NCBI GenBank assembly: GCA_001399795.1 | Contig: LIHK01000010.1 | Span: 1-53,996 of the forward strand | Direction: 5' to 3' | Source: Candidatus Bathyarchaeota archaeon BA2 | GTDB lineage: Archaea; Thermoproteota; Bathyarchaeia; Bathyarchaeales; Bathyarchaeaceae | DNA length: 53,996 nucleotides | In this document: positions 2,656-46,107 of the stretch, piece after piece | Layout: each line of letters starts with the position of its first letter | Numbering within the stretch: position 1 is the stretch's first letter | Position numbers and translations under genes: made by a program | The notes under the pieces: model-generated | What the model was told of the DNA's origin: nothing | Databases searched by the model: none | What the model saw: only the letters and a program-made list of their open reading frames with translations

Positions 2656-2746
2656 CTTAATAGAGTTCTGTTTAAACAGCCAAAGCACCAACTATTTTAA
2701 GAGAGAACCAACGTTAACTGACCATCCACTTTAGGAAAGAATTGCG

Positions 2747-4129
2747 TTGAAAGAAGACCTGGTAAAGGCCGTTGATTACGGGCAGAAACTTGGCGCCGAC
2801 TACGTTGAAGTTCGAACCCAGAAACTTTTCAAAACCCTCTTCACAACAAAAGACGGCGAAGTTGAAGCAGCTAAGGAGGGAACAGAAAACGGGGCAGGCA
2901 TCAGGGTTTTGGCAAAGGGCGCCTGGGGTTTCGTAACCCTTGGAACGCTGGATCCAAAGTTGCTAAAACAGGCTGTTGAAGAAGCATTCAAAATGGCGAA
3001 AGCAGCGAGTTTCAGGGTGAAAACGCCCGTAAAGCTTGCTGAGACAAAGGCTGTGGAAGACAGGGTGGTGACCAAATCAAGGAAAGATCCGAGGGAAATT
3101 CCAATCAAGGAAAAGATTAATGTCGCTTTAGCAATGGACAAAGCGATTTTTGATTACGACAACCGCGTAAAGAGTTGCACCATCGACTATCTTGATCTAA
3201 CAGGAACAAATTACTTCATCAACAGCGACGGAACCTACATTGAACAAGACAAACTTTACGTCTGGTCTAGAATTCTCGCCTCAGCAAGAGAAGCCGACGT
3301 TTTCACTTCGGGAAGAGAAGAAATAGGGTCCACAGCCGGTTTTGAAGTTTTTGACGTGGAAACACCAGAAATCGTGGGAACAAGAATTGCCAAACGCGTA
3401 ATTGATCAGTTAAAAGCCAAGGCGCCAAAGGGTGGAACTTTCCCAGCCGTAATCGGCACCAACGTAGTCGGTGTCTTCATCCACGAGGCTTTTGGGCATC
3501 TAGCAGAAGCAGACCTCACTTTATCTGGATCCATATTGTCTGACAAGCTTGGAAAGAAAATCGCATCAGAAGTCGTCACGACTTACGACGACGGCACAGT
3601 TGACGGCGCCTTCGGATCTTTCAAATACGATGACGAAGGAGTTCCAACGCAAAAATCTCTCTTGGTTAGAAACGGCAAAGTGGTTGGGCTTATGCACAAC
3701 CGTGAAACCGCCTTCAAGTTTAATATGCAACCAACAGGAAACGCTCGGGCTGAAGACTTCAGATTTGAACCCATCATCAGGATGAGGAACACCTACCTCG
3801 CCTCGGGCGATCATACGTTCGAGGAACTTATCGAGGACATTGATTTCGGCTATTACCTCAAAAGCTTTAGAGGAGGCCAAGCGAACCTGGACGGAACCTT
3901 TCAGGTTGGCATACAGGAGGCTTACGAAGTCGTTGAGGGACAGCTAGGCTCACCCGTTCGGAACGCCTCAATCAGTGGAAACACCCTTGAAACCCTACAC
4001 AAGGTGGATGCCGTTGGTAGAGACTTTAAATTGTGGCCCGGGAGATGCGGGAAGGTCCAAACAGCCTTCATTTGCGATGGAGGACCCCACATTCGGGTAA
4101 GAGAGGTTATCGTCGGTGGCGGAGCTTAA
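2747..4129 (+). CDS. tldD: TldD metalloprotease subunit
   Basis: HEAFGHLAEAD zinc motif, YDDEG, PIIRMRNTY, terminal CGK...GGPH. Confidence 0.92.
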   Translation: MKEDLVKAVDYGQKLGADYVEVRTQKLFKTLFTTKDGEVEAAKEGTENGAGIRVLAKGAWGFVTLGTLDPKLLKQAVEEAFKMAKAASFRVKTPVKLAETKAVEDRVVTKSRKDPREIPIKEKINVALAMDKAIFDYDNRVKSCTIDYLDLTGTNYFINSDGTYIEQDKLYVWSRILASAREADVFTSGREEIGSTAGFEVFDVETPEIVGTRIAKRVIDQLKAKAPKGGTFPAVIGTNVVGVFIHEAFGHLAEADLTLSGSILSDKLGKKIASEVVTTYDDGTVDGAFGSFKYDDEGVPTQKSLLVRNGKVVGLMHNRETAFKFNMQPTGNARAEDFRFEPIIRMRNTYLASGDHTFEELIEDIDFGYYLKSFRGGQANLDGTFQVGIQEAYEVVEGQLGSPVRNASISGNTLETLHKVDAVGRDFKLWPGRCGKVQTAFICDGGPHIRVREVIVGGGA

Positions 4130-25780: not shown

Positions 25781-25874
25781 GCCCCGGTGGCTAAGCCCGG
25801 TTATAGCAGCGGCCTCGTATGCAAAGTGCTGGGAGAGCCGCAGGTCGCGGGTTCGAATCCCGCCCGGGGCTCCA
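25781..25874 (+). tRNA. tRNA-Thr(CGT) with 16-nt intron at 37/38 (25820-25835)
   Basis: Full cloverleaf with encoded CCA; BHB helix CTCG/TGGG plus intron hairpin GCA-AAG-TGC. Confidence 0.93.
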
Positions 25875-29445: not shown

Positions 29446-29540
29446 GCCCCGGTGGCTAAGTCCGGTTATAGCAGCGGCCTTGTATGTAAAGTGCCTGAGA
29501 GAGCCGCAGGTCGCGGGTTCGAATCCCGCCCGGGGCTCCA
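29446..29540 (+). tRNA. tRNA-Thr(TGT) with 17-nt intron at 37/38
   Basis: Full cloverleaf nearly identical to the 25781 copy; BHB helix CTTG/TGAG; encoded CCA. Confidence 0.93.
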
Positions 29541-33015: not shown

Positions 33016-33057
33016 TGGTGCGGCGGACCGGATTTGAACTAGCGAACCTCTACGGGG
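33016..33057 (-). repeat. tRNA-Leu 3' fragment (variable arm to CCA), degenerate
   Basis: CCCCGTAGAGGTTCGCTAGTTCAAATCCGGTCCGCCGCACCA. Confidence 0.8.
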
Positions 33058-34018: not shown

Positions 34019-34127
34019 CCTTAGCCACCAACATTGCTTTGTAATCTACAAGAACTGTGCCTCTATTAAAATTTCTCTCGAATAATCTGAAAACCTCCTA
34101 AAATCTCGCTCTTTTAACGGAAATTCA

Positions 34128-34197
34128 TGGTGCGGAGGGTGGGATTCGAACCAGCGAACCCCTACGGGAGAGGACGTCTCCATCTAGGCTTGAGTCC
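34128..34197 (-). repeat. tRNA-Leu(CAA) 3' fragment from anticodon stem to CCA, with degenerate intron
   Basis: AGGACTCAAG-[CCTAGATGGAGAC]-GTCCTC...TTCGAAT...CCTCCGCACCA. Confidence 0.8.
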
Positions 34198-34215: not shown

Positions 34216-35112
34216 TCACTTCTTTAGTATAGATTTGATCGTATTGACCAAACTTTCTTCGAGTTTCCTAGCACCTCTAGGATCGTAGGTGTACTCAATC
34301 ACCCTTAGGTGTCTTATGTCGAAGGGGACATCATCCATAGACTGAGTTAATATCACCACTTCTTTGCCCACGGTGTGCGCAATGCCCAACTCATAATATA
34401 CATTGGGATTTTTTCCTGTAACATCAGCAATTACTATCCTCGCCTTACTGATGTATTCCCAGATATCTTCAATTATCTCCCGATTAGAAAAAATGTCATC
34501 CGACCGCATACATTTCATTTTGCATTCTTCAACAATCACCTTCTTAATATGATCTTCATAAATTGGTTGAAATCTCTGTTCAAACGGCATCAACACAAAG
34601 CATAAATTTTGTTCCAAAAGAAATCCTCTTCCTTTGAAAATTGGGTTAATTGTAATTTTACGTCTTGCTTTTTCCTCTTCTTGCAGTTCAAATTCTATGT
34701 ATTCATTTGCAAGATTTTTCAGTGCTTCACCTCGTTCTGCTGTGGAAAGATCAGCGAGACTAGCTGGAATGCTTGCAATCAAAAGTTCGTCGGGTGGAAA
34801 ACCGCAGTATGTAATAGCTAGAGCCTTAGCATCCTCTAGGCCAAGTGGCTCTTCTTTTTTATGCTCATAATAAAACCATCTTGTTTGCCCCGCGATGGCA
34901 CCTTTGTTAGTGATTATCAAAATAATCTCCTTTTTATCCACGGTGATCACTAGATAGAGGGGTCGTAAGAGACGAAGAGATATTCTTTTCATACCTCTCT
35001 CTTCAAGAGTACGTCTGACACTCGATACAAACTCTTCCACACATTTCTGAACATTATCTCTTTTTGGTGTATGAATAGTCGGAGTTAGTAAAAATTGGTC
35101 GAAGAAACTCAT
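34216..35112 (-). CDS. Protein with C-terminal nucleoside-2-deoxyribosyltransferase/TIR-like domain
   Basis: CFVLMPF...RSDD...IADVTGKNPNVYYELGIAH...PFDIRHLRVIEY. Confidence 0.75.
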   Translation of the reverse strand: MSFFDQFLLTPTIHTPKRDNVQKCVEEFVSSVRRTLEERGMKRISLRLLRPLYLVITVDKKEIILIITNKGAIAGQTRWFYYEHKKEEPLGLEDAKALAITYCGFPPDELLIASIPASLADLSTAERGEALKNLANEYIEFELQEEEKARRKITINPIFKGRGFLLEQNLCFVLMPFEQRFQPIYEDHIKKVIVEECKMKCMRSDDIFSNREIIEDIWEYISKARIVIADVTGKNPNVYYELGIAHTVGKEVVILTQSMDDVPFDIRHLRVIEYTYDPRGARKLEESLVNTIKSILKK

Positions 35113-35280: not shown

Positions 35281-35790
35281 TCACCATCTTTTATAAGGAG
35301 TGCTGCTCCATTGTTTTTTCACTTTATTTCGCATAAATTTCTGGAAGTGTATTGCTGGATTGTTTGATTTAGGAACTATTTCAACGACCTCTATGATTAT
35401 GCTTCTTGTTTTTTGATAACGCTCGATAACTTCATTTATATATGTTGTTAACTCTGCAAGTTGACACAGATCAGCATTATGGGCACTTAAAATCTCACCA
35501 GTACTTTCAAACTTATGCTCCTCGTATATGTGATTAAATATATACAACTGAAATTCAAGATATTTTTCAAGATCGCCTTTCTCTGGTATGTTATGTTCCA
35601 GTAGATATCTAGCCATAGCGTAGGTTATAGCCAGCTCATCATAAGTGTAAGGAAACCTTGCTTTGCAATCACTGCATTTATCAAACACAATTTTAATTTG
35701 TCGTTGTTCACTAGGCGACCGGACTTGTCTGGTTTCGATGAATCTCCCACATACCTCGCAAAGCGCATCAGCATTGCTTAAAATCAGCCA
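35281..35790 (-). CDS. Zinc-finger hypothetical protein, true start lost or frameshifted
   Basis: Frame extends upstream of the listed ORF: LCEVCGR...DKCSDCKARFPY, with no in-frame ATG before the first CxxC. Confidence 0.5.
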   Translation of the reverse strand, partial: WLILSNADALCEVCGRFIETRQVRSPSEQRQIKIVFDKCSDCKARFPYTYDELAITYAMARYLLEHNIPEKGDLEKYLEFQLYIFNHIYEEHKFESTGEILSAHNADLCQLAELTTYINEVIERYQKTRSIIIEVVEIVPKSNNPAIHFQKFMRNKVKKQWSSTPYKRW

Positions 35791-35815
35791 TTTCCCCTAT
35801 ACGTATTCGTGCATT

Positions 35816-35968
35816 CTATTCGATGTCAAAAACGTGGCCGCATCTAGGGCATTTAACGTTTTTGAGTTTTTCTTTAACTTTGTCTAGTTCACGGCGACAT
35901 TGCATTGCTTCAGAGGAGTAATGGGCTATCTCTCGATCTTTCCAAAAAGGATACTGACCTCTAGACAT
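35816..35968 (-). CDS. 50-aa zinc-ribbon microprotein (below ORF-track cutoff)
   Basis: MSRGQYPFWKDRE...KCPRCGHVFDIE*. Confidence 0.55.
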   Translation of the reverse strand: MSRGQYPFWKDREIAHYSSEAMQCRRELDKVKEKLKNVKCPRCGHVFDIE

Positions 35969-36029
35969 TTTTCATCAATAGCTAATCAATGAATTGTGTA
36001 GAAAAACTTTTCGAAGGCACTAAATTGAT

Positions 36030-36117
36030 TGGTGCAGCGGGCAGGATTTGAACCTGCGAACCCCTACGGGAAAGGATCTTGAGTCCTTCGCCTTTGACCT
36101 GGCTTGGCGACCGCTGC
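36030..36117 (-). tRNA. tRNA-Leu(CAA), intact, intronless
   Basis: All stems pair: GCAGCGG/CCGCTGC, AAGGA-CTCAAGA-TCCTT, long variable arm, GCAGG-TTCAAAT-CCTGC, CCA. Confidence 0.95.
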
Positions 36118-36212
36118 TGACCAAGCACTTAAATTTGCATACAGAATAATTAAGTATTACTTAAAAGAAAAACACTCAAAAGAAAGCGCTAAAATCAAAA
36201 TGTGGCTAAATA

Positions 36213-36896
36213 ATGGTTAATTTATCAAAAATGGGCAAAGGTAGGCATATTACCTATCATCCGCCAAAAGAAGTTCTTGATATAGAAGTTGCAGAGCTTT
36301 TAGGGCTTCATGCAGGTGATGGTTATATGTCATGCGGAATTTGGGGCGTACGATGCAACCTTCAAGACGAAGACATGGCTCAGCGAATAATACACCTAGC
36401 TCGCAACATTCTTGGAGTAGAACCGTGTGTCCGAATAAGAGAAAACACCTTTGAAATACGCAGCGGGCAAAGGCAAATAGTTCGCTTTTTCCGAAAGTAT
36501 GGCTTTATTGAAGGAAAGAAAGCCTACATCGTTCAAGTACCCAACCAAATAACCTGCACAAACGATTTAAAAATTATTGAGGCGTTCTTAAGAGGCTTAT
36601 TCAGCTCGGATGGAAGTTTCAGTTTCCAGAAAAGAGACTATTCTCCTCGCATAGATTTGATGGTTAGGAGCAGATTGCTAAGAGACCAGTTTGTCGAATT
36701 GGCTGCGAAGGTCGGCTTTTCGTTTAACAAATCCGACGCTATAAGGGTAAAGAAAGGCTTTACAACGAAATCAACTGGAGCCTTCTTTAACGCAAACCTC
36801 GCTTCAAGAGATGATGTACTGAGATGGATGACAACCATAGGCACTCTTTGCGGCACTCATATGAAAAAGTTCAAAGCTTGGCAATCAGAGACTTAA
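36213..36896 (+). mobile_element. Free-standing double-motif LAGLIDADG homing endonuclease
   Basis: ELLGLHAGDGYM and AFLRGLFSSDGSF; no intein Cys1/His-Asn termini and no flanking exons. Confidence 0.85.
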
Positions 36897-36900
36897 CTAA

Positions 36901-36947
36901 CATCTAGCCCCTATACGCATAGATTGACCTGGCTCTGCTACCCCCGC
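36901..36947 (-). pseudogene. tRNA-Leu 5' fragment with promoter and probable 20-nt D-loop intron (36904-36923)
   Basis: GCGGGGGTAGCAGAGCCAGGTCAA|TCTATGCGTATAGGGGCTAG|ATG; helix GGTC/GGCT with 3-nt bulges; upstream GAAAAAATTAATAG. Confidence 0.7.
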
Positions 36948-37055
36948 ACCCGTTTCACAAACTAACTCTTCCTTTCTATTAATTTTTTCCAACGACGGTA
37001 TCATCGTGAATATATTTATGTGTAACAAATCCTTAACGTCCTTGGAGACAGCCTC

Positions 37056-37410: not shown

Positions 37411-37425
37411 CTTGGCTACCGCCGC
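37411..37425 (-). repeat. 15-nt tRNA-Leu 5' end
   Basis: GCGGCGGTAGCCAAG, 1 mismatch to the 5' end of the 37730 copy. Confidence 0.6.
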
Positions 37426-37427
37426 TC

Positions 37428-37541
37428 GACCAGCCGAACTAATCTAACGAATGGTGGTCCCAACCTTTTCGCCCTTAATAACCAACAAAACGTTTTCAGG
37501 CTTGAAGCCGTTCACCACAACCACTCTCATTCTTCTCTTTT
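37428..37541 (-). pseudogene. pyrH: Duplicate of the pyrH 3' end and its downstream 16 nt
   Basis: About 4 mismatches over 114 nt versus 42273-42386. Confidence 0.9.
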
Positions 37542-37729: not shown

Positions 37730-37839
37730 TGGTCGGGCGGGCCGGATTCGAACCGGCGAACCCGTACGGGAGAGGATAGCTCATGGGAGTCCAACCGATC
37801 TTGAGTCCTCCGTGTTTGACCTAGCTTCGCTACCGCCGC
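37730..37839 (-). tRNA. tRNA-Leu(CAA) with 22-nt intron (37778-37799), probably a pseudo-tRNA
   Basis: Full length, BHB helix CTCA/TGAG; acceptor 1-72 and 2-71 mismatched (CCGCCCG-ACCA) and one D-stem mismatch. Confidence 0.8.
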
Positions 37840-37951: not shown

Positions 37952-38475
37952 ATGAAAACAATAACTCCTCTGGCACAGCAAGAATATGAGAGAATGTGTG
38001 AAACACTGGGCGGAAAGCCGGTACACTCAACTCTTGCATTTCATTGAGCCAGACTCATAGAACTACTATACGTGGCCGAAAGGGCCGTAGAATTGAGCAT
38101 AGACGAGAGATAACAAGTAAAGACATTAGGAATGAGGTAGGTAGCCTCGGAGAGGGAGTTGGAATAGTCGAAGCGGCCAGGGGCACCCTGATACATCATT
38201 ATCAACTTGACGAAGACGCCCTAATAAAAAAAGTCAATTTAATAGTGGCTACGACAAACAACGCTTCAGCCATATGCATGTCCATAAGAGACGCAGCTAA
38301 AGGTCTCATACACGGCGGAGAAGTGAGTGAGGAAATATTGAACATGGTGGAGATGGCCTTCAGAGCCTACGACCCATGCTGGGCATGCGCCACCCACTTC
38401 GCAATAGGTCAAATGCCCTTTGAACTCAAAATATACAGCCACAACAAAAAGCTCCTAAAAACCCTGAAAAGGTAA
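37952..38475 (+). pseudogene. mvhA: 3' third of a group-3 [NiFe]-hydrogenase large subunit
   Basis: TPLAQQEYERM...GGKPVHSTLAFH*ARLIELLY, frameshift, then VEAARGTLIHHY...RAYDPCWACATH. Confidence 0.85.
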
Positions 38476-38815: not shown

Positions 38816-40012
38816 ATGTTAAAGTGTATAAGAATCAAAAATCTAAGATCTATCAAGGAACAAGAAATAGAGGTCGCTCCAGTAACTGTCCTTTACGGTC
38901 CTAACGCCTCTGGAAAATCAACACTTTTGCACGCACTTGCAATTCTAAGAAACGTTATGATGAATCCTAATCAACCTCTTGACAGTTTTTTCAACCTTCT
39001 CTTCGCTAACTTCGGAGGATTTGAACAAGTTGTGTTTAACCATATACCTGACGAACAAATAGAATTAGAAATAGATTCTATACAGGATTCCGCAATTATA
39101 ACATACAAGGTCGTCCTTAGTAAGACGAAGGGAGGTTTTTCGATCCGCGTGAGCGATCCATTTAAGGCCGCATCTAAAATTGAAACAACTTTTCCATACC
39201 AAGCGAACATCCAGCAGAATATTACAGTTAAGTATGACGAGATCCCCTTGACGGTAACTTGGAACGGCATTCTTGCCCAGCCTTTAGGCACACCTGAAGC
39301 CCCAGAGGCTGCGGAGAGGTTGGCTACTTTACTCAATAGTCCCATTGAAGAGCTTCGAAAAACTGATTTTGTTCATATAAAACGAGGTTTTTCTCATCCT
39401 CACTATGGAACTGTATCACTCACCTCTGCACTTTTCACAGAAGGCGAAGTGGCGACGCTTTTAGCTAGTGATCCTTACTTAGAAGGTAAGGTCAGTCACT
39501 ACCTTGAGCAAATTCTTGGAAGAGATTTACGAGTGCGAGTAACGCCTGCAACAGCTCTTTTCTGGCTCAGAACTACAGACAAAATGACTGGATTGTCCAC
39601 CGAGCTTGTCAATGATGGATTTGGGGTTAATCAGCTTGTCTACCTGCTTGCGAAGTGTCTAAGAAAGGATACCTCTCTAATATGCATAGAAGAACCGGAG
39701 ATTCATTTGCATCCGAAAGCTCTAAGAAATCTTGTCTATGAATTGGTGAAACTGGTTAAGGAAGAATGCAAAACTTTGATCATCTCTTCTCACAGCGATC
39801 ACTTTGTTGTATATCTGCTTAGTGCTGTTGCAAAAAAGCAGATAAGCCCCGATGAAGTAGCTTGTTATCTATGCACCAAAACTAAAGAAGGAACCACGTT
39901 TGAGCGCCAGCGAGTGCAACCTGACGGTCGAATGGAGGGCGGATTGTCAAGTTTTATGGAAGGCGAATTAGAAGACCTTAAGACTATTCTAAGTCTTTCC
40001 AAAGAGGAATAA
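38816..40012 (+). CDS. ABC-class ATPase (AAA_15/AAA_21-like, DUF3696-like tail)
   Basis: GPNASGKS, DGFGVNQL signature, IEEPEIHLHP, SSHS. Confidence 0.88.
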   Translation: MLKCIRIKNLRSIKEQEIEVAPVTVLYGPNASGKSTLLHALAILRNVMMNPNQPLDSFFNLLFANFGGFEQVVFNHIPDEQIELEIDSIQDSAIITYKVVLSKTKGGFSIRVSDPFKAASKIETTFPYQANIQQNITVKYDEIPLTVTWNGILAQPLGTPEAPEAAERLATLLNSPIEELRKTDFVHIKRGFSHPHYGTVSLTSALFTEGEVATLLASDPYLEGKVSHYLEQILGRDLRVRVTPATALFWLRTTDKMTGLSTELVNDGFGVNQLVYLLAKCLRKDTSLICIEEPEIHLHPKALRNLVYELVKLVKEECKTLIISSHSDHFVVYLLSAVAKKQISPDEVACYLCTKTKEGTTFERQRVQPDGRMEGGLSSFMEGELEDLKTILSLSKEE

Positions 40013-40019
40013 ACTCGAA

Positions 40020-40472
40020 ATGGAAAGGGAAATTACCGTTGATGAATGGATAGTCCACTTTATATCTGAGCCTCAGAAACGTGAAGTGGCGGTCAAGTTT
40101 TTGGAAAAAGTTCATCAGAAATGTGACAAATTGGTCACTCTGAGAGGAGGACCCTTAGATCAAAAAATATGGAAAATGGCTAAGAGTTCACAAGATTGGG
40201 ATATTGGGGGAAAAAGACTTGTAAAGTGGTTCATGAGAGAATTTAGACTCAGCAGTAAATTTCGCGCTCTTGAAGAATTAGACATGGAACCGTTACCCGG
40301 GGATTTGGAACGAGAGACCCCAGAAGATGACTTATATCTTGTCAAAACTGCAATAAGCACGTTAGACCGCCTTATTGTTACCACAGACGGAGGGCTGAAG
40401 GAAAGGCTATCAAGCAGATCAGAATTGACTGTATGCTTTTTTGATGAATTTTTTAAAGTATATAATTGTTAG
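40020..40472 (+). CDS. PIN-fold-like protein, co-transcribed with the ATPase
   Basis: ITVDEWI, PEDDLYLV, LIVTTDGGL acidic motifs. Confidence 0.65.
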   Translation: MEREITVDEWIVHFISEPQKREVAVKFLEKVHQKCDKLVTLRGGPLDQKIWKMAKSSQDWDIGGKRLVKWFMREFRLSSKFRALEELDMEPLPGDLERETPEDDLYLVKTAISTLDRLIVTTDGGLKERLSSRSELTVCFFDEFFKVYNC

Positions 40473-41964: not shown

Positions 41965-42288
41965 ATGAATTCGATCTATCTCCAAATTAATAAATTGGTT
42001 AAGAAATCTAAGTTAACTTGTTCTTCATCCTTTTGTGAACTACACAACCAGAACCAACATTAGCACACATGGCAAAAACTTCGATGAAATACGCATCTTA
42101 CATAGAAAGCAAGATGGTGTTAGCGATCAACCGAACGACCTTAACAAACCGGCCCATGACATTCAACAACATACACAAAAACCCATAAACAAACGAGTTA
42201 AAATAGCAAACCTAAAACAAAACCAACACAATAGAGAGGGGGCTATAGAGGGGGCTAGAAAGAGAAAGAGAGGACCAGCCGAACTAAT

Positions 42289-42981
42289 CTAACGAATGGT
42301 GGTCCCAACCTTTTCGCCCTTAACAGCCAACAAAACGTTTTCAGGCTTGAAGCCGTTCACCACAACAATTCTCATTCTTCTCTTTTCAAGAATTTTAACG
42401 GCTTCAGGATCAAGAATTTGATGAATCCCCGCCTTGTGTTTGTTTTCCTCAAACAGCCACGACAAATCATCGAAACCAAGCTCATCAATCTTTTTTGCAT
42501 CCAAATGCTTCTTGGGGTCTTTTGTGAATACGCCGTCTACGTCTGAAGCTTTCACCAACAAATCAGCCTCTATCTTCTCACCCATCATAGCCGCCACAGC
42601 GTCTGTGGTCATGCCGGGCTTCAAACCACCCATAACAACGATTTTTCCCCGCTTCAGACAGCCAAAAGCCTCATCCAAAGAAACTGGCACGGCTCCACAA
42701 CCATCTTCACCCAAACGCATAACAAACAACTGGGCGAAAAGACGCGAAACATGAATTGCAGCCCAGTCTCGTTTCGCCTCGTCCAAACCCAACTCGCCGG
42801 CGATTTTGATGAAGTCACGGGCTAGAGCGCCGCCTCCAACAACTGCAGCAACCTCGTGCCCCTGCCTCTTCAAATCCTTCAACAAATCAGCGTACCTACT
42901 AATCAAAGTAGAGTTGGGAGGAGAGACTATAACGGAACCTCCGACACGAACCACGATCTTCAACTGAAACGCTCCTACCAC
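42289..42981 (-). CDS. pyrH: UMP kinase
   Basis: VGGSVI, VVGGGALAR, GGLKPGMTTDAVA, DVDGVFTKDP. Confidence 0.95.
   Translation of the reverse strand: MVGAFQLKIVVRVGGSVIVSPPNSTLISRYADLLKDLKRQGHEVAAVVGGGALARDFIKIAGELGLDEAKRDWAAIHVSRLFAQLFVMRLGEDGCGAVPVSLDEAFGCLKRGKIVVMGGLKPGMTTDAVAAMMGEKIEADLLVKASDVDGVFTKDPKKHLDAKKIDELGFDDLSWLFEENKHKAGIHQILDPEAVKILEKRRMRIVVVNGFKPENVLLAVKGEKVGTTIR

Positions 42982-44429: not shown

Positions 44430-46107
<1,678 letters not shown>

Follow-up and report, generated by a model that had tools for sequence, protein, structure and literature searches.

Organization of the locus

The window analyzed here, the whole 53,996-nucleotide (nt) stretch of contig LIHK01000010.1 from Candidatus Bathyarchaeota archaeon BA2, is archaeal, with an archaeal 16S ribosomal RNA (rRNA) gene at 44430-46107 and relatives named Candidatus Bathyarchaeia. 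Its subject is an open reading frame (ORF) at 36213-36896 (+ strand), which encodes a 227-amino-acid (aa) two-domain LAGLIDADG endonuclease and lies within an array of intact and broken leucine transfer RNA (tRNA) genes. The arrangement probably reflects a homing-endonuclease cassette that interrupts one tRNA-Leu gene and supplies another in its place.

Two types of tRNA-Leu(CAA) gene were distinguished. A-type genes have the acceptor GCAGCGG/CCGCTGC and the anticodon stem AAGGA/TCCTT; X-type genes have the acceptor GCAGGGG or GCGGGGG paired with CCCCTGC, the stem CGGGA/TCCCG and a 20-28-nt D-loop intron after GGTCAA. When large introns were permitted, ARAGORN paired distant halves into spurious tRNAs, and those results were used as pointers only.

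The gene nearest the ORF is an intact A-type tRNA-Leu(CAA) at 36030-36117 (- strand; acceptor GCAGCGG/CCGCTGC, Rfam 55 bits). Because it is the sole intact tRNA-Leu(CAA) gene of the 1.46-Mb assembly, in which no intact X target is left, it was taken to be the replacement, or 'rescue', copy. The tRNA and the ORF form a divergent module, with the ATG 95 nt from the tRNA; the spacer (36118-36212) contains the tRNA promoter, which is of the TTAATTATTCT type, and presumably the ORF promoter too.

On the other side of the ORF, 4 nt from its TAA, ends an X-type tRNA-Leu(CAA) 5' piece (36901-36950, - strand), which consists of an exon at 36950-36927, GCGGGGGTAGCAGAGCCAGGTCAA, and an intron-like tail, the remnant of the D-loop intron. 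The promoter region of this gene (36951-36995, - strand) retains a box at 36973-36991 of the TGGAAAAAATTAATAGAAA type, common to other tRNA-Leu genes and pieces. The acceptor strand GCGGGGG of the 5' piece pairs with the CCCCTGC of an X-type 3' piece at 35282-35226 (- strand) and not with the intact A gene. Since the acceptors of the two pieces pair, they were read as an X-type gene that a 1.6-kb insert has divided at the anticodon stem. The insert comprises the LAGLIDADG gene, the whole A-type tRNA and, as cargo in the interval from the replacement tRNA to the X 3' piece (35283-36029, - strand), two small ORFs: a 135-aa ORF at 35281-35688 and a 50-aa zinc-ribbon ORF at 35816-35968. The 3' piece is X-type from G29/G30 onward, with the 5' strand of the anticodon stem and U33 decayed, and the X gene of the window is therefore dead. 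Intact X-type genes with the D-loop intron occur at three other loci (L009, L011, L012), and the spliced X sequence folds as a normal tRNA-Leu(CAA).

A previous description of the window, made from its letters alone (the sequence-only reading), had placed the ORF antisense to the tRNAs, between the promoter of the intact tRNA and a truncated 5' tRNA half, and this is correct. The half does lie beside the stop codon; what that reading missed is that it is of X type, unlike the intact A-type gene. With its X-type 3' partner 1.6 kb away, the intact tRNA belongs to the inserted cassette and not to the invaded gene. Two other origins were considered and ruled out: a hybrid tRNA restored by att-type integration, as the acceptors of the 5' piece and the intact tRNA are mismatched, and inversion of a segment between two tRNA genes, as re-inverting it does not rejoin the halves.

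The insert could instead be a giant bulge-helix-bulge intron, or the halves could be trans-spliced, with the interrupted tRNA-Leu still made and the nuclease intron-encoded. Consistent with this, the break is near the canonical intron position, 5' pieces keep their promoters and well-conserved exons, these genomes carry non-canonical tRNA introns and 16S introns, and in a sister clade (clade 1, described below) the ORF runs in the same direction as the split gene and might use its promoter. In the window, however, the ORF is antisense to the split gene and the 3' piece is without the anticodon-stem strand and U33, while several split 3' halves elsewhere are truncated or have mutated anticodons. 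The insert also holds a complete tRNA, which would be cut out by RNase P and RNase Z, and on this model a full replacement tRNA would be superfluous. No convincing complementarity between trailer and leader was found by eye; in the window, the 5' piece has a promoter and the 3' piece is decayed. We regard the giant-intron or split-tRNA explanation as very improbable.

The LAGLIDADG protein

The 227-aa protein matched the Pfam families LAGLIDADG_3 (1.5e-9) and Hom_end (1e-4) and no others. Its two motifs are LLGLHAGDG (residues 29-37) and FLRGLFSSDG (residues 125-134), and both catalytic aspartates, D36 and D133, are invariant in an alignment of 27 diverse family members. The Pfam scan of the protein detected no Hint or intein domain, and no in-frame host ORF flanks 36213-36896. 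The ORF has its own ATG and stop codon, and homologs keep the start MVNLSKMG; together with the missing Hint domain, the conserved start identifies the gene as free-standing.

An AlphaFold2 model of the protein was confident (predicted local distance difference test score 89.7, predicted template modeling score 0.88). It has the pseudo-symmetric, duplicated alpha-beta-beta-alpha-beta-beta-alpha fold with a beta-sheet DNA saddle. Foldseek matched the model to 7qsu, 2dch (I-Tsp061I), PI-SceI and I-DmoI (E 1e-12 to 1e-6), to the TliVMA intein and PI-PfuI, both two-domain LAGLIDADG enzymes, and further to the catalytically dead WhiA N-domain and to maturases. Sequence identity to the structurally closest LAGLIDADG enzymes is only 15-21% (~18% for I-Tsp061I). 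Among solved structures, the closest by sequence are the endonuclease domains of Thermococcus-type VMA inteins, with I-Tsp061I matching weakly. Pfam matches, motifs, fold and conserved start thus bear out the earlier description of a two-motif LAGLIDADG gene without intein termini. LAGLIDADG homing endonucleases characteristically make a site-specific double-strand cut in a long target, leaving 4-nt 3' overhangs. The best reading of the ORF is that it encodes such an enzyme, with activity predicted from sequence and model.

Family-wide layout and reciprocity of two clades

Relatives were collected from a large protein collection (65 proteins, ~227-290 aa, 37-90% identity), from a metagenome scan (80 loci) and from named genomes. 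In the last of these, a search of genome contigs with the single protein gave no loci, and an alignment query yielded 21 further close ones. The family tree contains two strongly supported main clades and smaller ones. Clade 3 includes the window's protein, to which its members are 60-90% identical; clade 1 proteins are ~43% identical to it.

The window's layout recurs in ~39 metagenomic clade-3 loci. A divergent tRNA-Leu(CAA) lies within 130 nt of the ORF in 31 of 32 loci, with a spacer of 86-99 nt, mostly 95. At least 25 of 34 loci have an X-type 5' piece no more than 90 nt from the stop codon, and most of the others show one on inspection; X-type 3' pieces follow beyond the tRNA at variable distances. 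With such recurrence of both tRNA and 5' piece, the layout is not due to chance.

Clade 1 shows the converse. All 29 loci have an intact X-type tRNA 35-50 nt after the ORF, the last codons of which overlap the tRNA promoter. The ORF is preceded by an A-type (or GCGGCGG-type) 5' piece in 14 of 16 loci, and the matching A-type 3' piece follows downstream in 13 of 13. The flanking pieces have acceptor strands that pair fully and covary in 7 of 7 loci (GCAGCGG/CCGCTGC or GCGGCGG/CCGCCGC), and the pieces are therefore halves of one former gene. Judged from these layouts, each clade, with one tRNA type, sits inside a split gene of the other type.

Since the two clades are reciprocal, they can be nested. 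In the double nest shared by L032 and L033 the order is A 5' piece, intact clade-1 ORF, X 5' piece, clade-3 ORF with A tRNA, and X 3' piece. The outer clade-1 genes around clade-3 cassettes are intact in these two loci, frameshifted in L020 and reduced to fragments in L048-53, L040, L031, L052 and L035, a series that fits the life cycle of homing endonucleases. No clade-1 ORF relic was detected in the window by tblastn; only the promoter is kept. RWKKLIERKS followed by a stop codon (~36960-36992) was considered as such a relic and rejected, because it recurs as the normal promoter region in front of resident tRNA-Leu genes (L077, L084, L092).

In deeper clades the ORF immediately precedes tRNA-Leu(UAA) or tRNA-Leu(UAG), and this extends to Nitrososphaeria (Ca. 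Gagatemarchaeum and 'Thaumarchaeota' metagenome-assembled genomes); in L096/L139 and L142 the ORF is itself preceded by an older 5' piece from a different tRNA-Leu type. The Nitrososphaeria members (39-41% identity) are L139 of Ca. Gagatemarchaeum stordalenia (2739-3816), L142 (2785-3851) and L140. An intron-bearing tRNA-Leu(UAA) comes immediately after them, and the association with tRNA-Leu thus crosses class boundaries and anticodons. Only two distant matches (27-31% identity) were found in viral contigs, with no sign that viruses carry the cassette.

A sub-lineage within clade 3 (L045/L047, the same loci as L007/L008) has the ORF (1686-2387) and the tRNA (2461-2587) on the same strand. Its tRNA is a third tRNA-Leu(CAA) type (stem CCGCG/CGCGG, 40-nt intron), near tRNA-Thr, tRNA-Gly and a TnpB-like gene. 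The nuclease gene seems to have relocated independently here.

Linkage to tRNA-Leu is thus family-wide (>120 loci), the genomic context of homologs being one of the things that the sequence-only reading had proposed to check. That reading had further suggested that the enzyme acts in trans on the site of an ORF-less 16S rRNA intron. The genome does have such an intron, and the fold resembles I-Tsp061I, a 16S-intron enzyme. Against it, 0 of the >120 family loci are in or near rRNA, all being beside tRNA-Leu genes, and identity to I-Tsp061I is merely ~18%; action on the 16S site has next to no probability.

The ratio of nonsynonymous to synonymous substitution rates (dN/dS) was computed for homologs, as also proposed earlier. 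Median values are ~0.17 for clade 3 (dS 0.70) and 0.11 for clade 1 (dS 1.13), with dS up to >1. These ratios indicate purifying selection that maintains the proteins of both clades in a working state.

Strong and long-lasting purifying selection would also be expected of a domesticated DNA- or RNA-binding LAGLIDADG protein, WhiA-like or maturase-like, that controls or processes the adjacent tRNA-Leu, the split pieces being debris. Such a role would suit the clade-3 spacer to the tRNA promoter, fixed at 95 nt, the overlap of the clade-1 ORF with the tRNA promoter, and the WhiA N-terminal domain and maturases among the fold matches; one source calls a homolog WhiA. WhiA is without the catalytic acidic residues, whereas both catalytic aspartates are invariant here. 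Clade 3 has no C-terminal helix-turn-helix or other extra C-terminal domain, which speaks against the WhiA-like regulator that the sequence-only reading had named among the outcomes that would refute it. Moreover, most relatives are without the protein yet keep the same tRNA, and the gene is always inside a split tRNA gene and decays after its partner tRNA has been invaded. A host function of this kind is improbable in our judgment.

Break site, empty sites and allele turnover

Split 5' pieces of both tRNA types end between G29 and T33, in GAAGGACT, GCGGGG or GCGCGG. Split 3' pieces of both types start at G29/G30, with GGACTCAAG. The 5' and 3' pieces have 2-5 nt in common at the junctions.

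Among ORF-free relatives of the same family and order, an uninterrupted tRNA-Leu(CAA) lies just downstream of pyrH (G017, G057 and six more). The resident gene of G017 is 97% identical to the window's A gene, and its promoter is likewise of the TTAATTATTCT type. By this comparison, a relic of the pyrH 3' end in the window (37428-37541) and the GCGGCGG-type 5' piece that directly follows it (37434-37411) mark the ancestral pyrH-tRNA-Leu junction. For clade 3, the empty sites are the intact X genes of clade-1 loci; L032/33 and L097 are homologous (93.6%) precisely up to the terminal GCGCGG and no further. No pair of filled and empty sites with flanks >97% identical was found. Distribution is patchy: the ORF family occurs in 3 of 37 genomes of the taxonomic family, and a truncated copy with the same divergent tRNA was found in one other taxonomic family.

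The tRNA alleles themselves turn over. L032 and L033 have flanks that are 97.7-100% identical and near-identical nuclease genes, and the tRNA alleles beside the ORF are entirely different: an intron-less GCAGCGG type in L032 (554-641) and a two-intron GCGGCGG type in L033 (2873-2993). On the sequences, this is a recent swap of a whole tRNA allele. L037 (clade 3) and L081 (clade 1) have both outer flanks 93-95% identical and differ in their nests.

The dead X 5' exon (24 nt; 36950-36927 in the window) is ~90% identical between clade-3 loci, a value prone to ascertainment because the copies were collected by pattern and very diverged ones missed; third codon positions of the ORF are saturated at ~45% identity. 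Such conservation of the exon is consistent with working genes being newly invaded time and again, or with a function that the piece still has. The piece may, for example, give rise to an antisense transcript that controls the nuclease, as its promoter points into the gene.

The tRNA-Leu pieces might instead be att scars of integrative elements, or traces of a recombination hot spot, in which the LAGLIDADG gene is mere cargo. This would suit the series of 3' tRNA pieces that follows the intact gene and the small cargo genes that resemble toxin-antitoxin and defence genes, and the 2-5-nt overlaps could be crossover cores. The closest published case is also of this kind, in Caldiarchaeum, where a tRNA-Thr 5' fragment is separated from the new tRNA-Thr by a recombinase-encoding element (PMC3293823). 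Yet in the innermost layer of ~70 loci only the LAGLIDADG gene is constant, always abutting the intact tRNA, and the cargo varies by locus. The targets are split into non-overlapping halves and are not duplicated 3' att copies, and the acceptor types mark the intact tRNA as foreign to the split gene. No tyrosine recombinase (PF00589) was found on the contig or within +/-6 kb of four other loci (among L004-L010), and no recurrent recombinase was found among the 25 commonest Pfam families of 148 neighboring ORF clusters. That the nuclease is a mere passenger is unlikely, though of the alternatives discussed here we take it most seriously.

Outer layers and neighboring features of the window

The outer layer of the array is a GCGGCGG-type gene, with its 5' piece at 37411-37434 (- strand) and the partner 3' piece (acceptor CCGCCGC) at 33016-33056 (- strand). 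A further tRNA-Leu 3' piece at 34127-34183 (- strand; acceptor CCTCCGC) has a mismatched T stem and is followed by a 298-aa cargo ORF (34216-35112, - strand), which spans the gap between two 3' tRNA pieces; the Nuc_deoxyrib_tr match of its C-terminal part is weak (E 0.0014, below cut-off).

The pyrH relic is one copy of a 114-nt direct repeat (96.5% identity) of the pyrH 3' end, at 37428-37541 and 42273-42386; the real pyrH is at 42289-42981 (- strand). About 4.7 kb of accessory DNA lies between the repeats. It contains a damaged full-length tRNA-Leu(CAA)-like copy (37733-37839, - strand; 22-25-nt intron, two acceptor mismatches, Rfam 21.7 bits, below the gathering score), a C-terminal fragment of a NiFe-hydrogenase (38044-38475), and an AAA_15/AAA_21 ATPase with a 150-aa partner (38816-40472). 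The region looks like an insertion into the pyrH end that carried its own gene end.

Elsewhere in the window, tRNA genes at 25781-25871 and 29446-29537 (+ strand; Rfam 57.7 and 60.5 bits) were missed by ARAGORN and are probably intron-bearing, like many tRNAs of this genome. Weak Rfam matches to CRISPR-DR62 (36161-36195), snoU83 (35906-35983) and Plastid-ycf2 were far below gathering scores and were discarded.

A proposed cassette with a replacement tRNA

Taken together, the comparisons suggest that the locus is, on balance probably, a homing-endonuclease cassette: it would break, at the anticodon stem, a resident tRNA-Leu gene of the opposite type and bring a resistant substitute. The enzyme would cut an uninterrupted resident tRNA-Leu(CAA), for clade 3 an X-type gene with the stem CGGGA/TCCCG, in the anticodon stem or loop at about positions 29-33. 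Repair from a cassette-bearing allele would then copy the nuclease gene, the tRNA and any cargo into the break and leave the resident gene split. The A-type tRNA of the cassette (stem AAGGA/TCCTT, sometimes with introns) differs across the site and would stay uncut; by restoring the lost decoding, it would make the cassette hard to lose. The sister clade would do the reverse, cutting A-type genes and carrying an X-type tRNA. By invading each other's replacement tRNA, the two clades would build nested 'Russian-doll' arrays such as that of the window, with cargo riding along. Substitute and target differ at stem pairs 27-28/42-43 and in the D-arm, and the substitute is often interrupted by an intron within ~10 bp of the break; such stem and D-arm differences or introns could confer immunity.

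The sequence-only reading had proposed that the enzyme cuts cassette-free tRNA-Leu alleles and drives the array by homing. The comparative pattern, from which we infer both cleavage and transfer, sides with that proposal. On comparative grounds, the proposal is well supported by the family-wide linkage to tRNA-Leu, the single split site, the reciprocal nesting, the empty sites and the decay of superseded nuclease genes.

Several observations weigh against such a cassette. Overlaps of 2-5 nt at the junctions are not expected from clean homing. A and X genes are identical over GGACTCAAGATCC at the break, so that discrimination would have to depend on flanking stem and D-arm positions, which is an assumption. 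Layouts are uniform within clades, which is equally what a single old insertion in each clade, inherited vertically since, would produce. Purifying selection over long times (dS >1) is seldom seen in a purely selfish nuclease and may point to a host function. The 3' pieces without 5' partners (34127, ~33650), with the defence- and toxin-antitoxin-like cargo, resemble integrase-type islands, and a rare integrase could be hidden by a Pfam summary of neighbors that comprises the 25 commonest families.

A broader proposal, which we offer tentatively and would not bet on, is that the two sister LAGLIDADG clades of Bathyarchaeia, which have relatives in Nitrososphaeria, are natural 'cleave-and-replace' drives that cut each other's substitute tRNA-Leu, leapfrogging and accumulating nested half-genes, and that their conflict is a direct and still active cause of tRNA intron gain, allele turnover and gene splitting in Archaea. 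Such a conflict would provide the selective agent so far missing from the hypothesis that disrupted tRNA genes protect against mobile elements.

Significance

LAGLIDADG enzymes, free-standing homing genes and tRNA fragments at insertion hot spots are known kinds. The literature searched did not contain their combination here: a free-standing LAGLIDADG gene of a cellular genome that is obligately paired with a complete replacement tRNA, in two mutually invading clades, with serial nesting and decay of the outer genes. Nor did it contain a description of a natural nuclease-plus-rescue element aimed at an essential tRNA gene.

If the cassette interpretation is true, the locus is a natural nuclease-plus-rescue selfish element directed against an essential tRNA gene, with direct bearing on the origin of disrupted tRNA genes in Archaea. 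It would offer a testable agent for archaeal tRNA introns at odd positions, for the half-genes scattered over tRNA loci and for the origin of split tRNAs. It would also mean that small defence-like and toxin-antitoxin-like genes hitch-hike into the chromosome without an integrase. The dozens of natural LAGLIDADG variants, presumably with shifted specificities for near-identical targets, form a series for the study and engineering of meganuclease specificity.

Comparison with known systems

With the archaeal rRNA-intron enzymes I-Tsp061I and I-DmoI and with VMA-intein domains, the window's protein shares the monomeric two-domain fold and both catalytic acidic residues. With the two intron enzymes it also shares Thermoproteota-type archaea as hosts and, if the proposed target is right, a structural-RNA gene as target. 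Unlike I-Tsp061I, I-DmoI and the VMA inteins, the window gene is free-standing and antisense to the gene it interrupts, and its target would be a tRNA gene. Intron and intein enzymes rely on splicing to restore the host gene; here a complete substitute tRNA gene would take over that role.

Free-standing homing endonuclease genes of T-even phages lie by their target locus, are inherited via break repair and co-conversion, and leave the carrier allele resistant. T4 SegB, which we take to be only a functional analogy, is a phage GIY-YIG enzyme of a different nuclease family. The likeness to SegB-type 'intronless homing' is that a free-standing nuclease gene lies beside its proposed target locus. 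The differences are a LAGLIDADG enzyme, a cellular archaeal chromosome, a target gene that is physically split, and a whole replacement tRNA in the cassette.

In Caldiarchaeum subterraneum, the old 5' fragment of tRNA-Thr(GGU) lies 1.8 kb upstream of a new tRNA-Thr, with a recombinase-encoding insert between them (Sugahara et al., 2012; PMC3293823). The insert is a transposable element present in repeated copies, and the arrangement was proposed as a way in which tRNA introns and split tRNAs could arise (PMC3293823). In the present loci, too, a new tRNA is preceded by the 5' fragment of an older one with the same specificity. They differ in that a recombinase was not found, a LAGLIDADG gene is the constant partner, both old halves remain, and the arrangement is reciprocal and nested.

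In fungal mitochondria, LAGLIDADG genes insert in protein genes (rps3, atp, cox) together with a duplicated gene end that restores the frame. As in such organellar inserts, a needed gene is invaded and a piece that keeps it working is supplied; there the piece is a partial in-frame duplicate, whereas here it is a complete, separately promoted RNA gene of another type. The tRNA-Leu(UAA) clades are perhaps exceptional in that only the 5' part is replaced.

In the synthetic Cleave and Rescue (ClvR) system, Cas9 destroys an essential gene and a linked, cleavage-resistant version of that gene is provided at an unlinked site. The cassette described here resembles ClvR in joining a nuclease to a version of the gene that would resist it, cutting and resistance being the predicted parts of the comparison. 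Unlike ClvR, it is natural, has a protein-only nuclease and is located inside the gene that it breaks.

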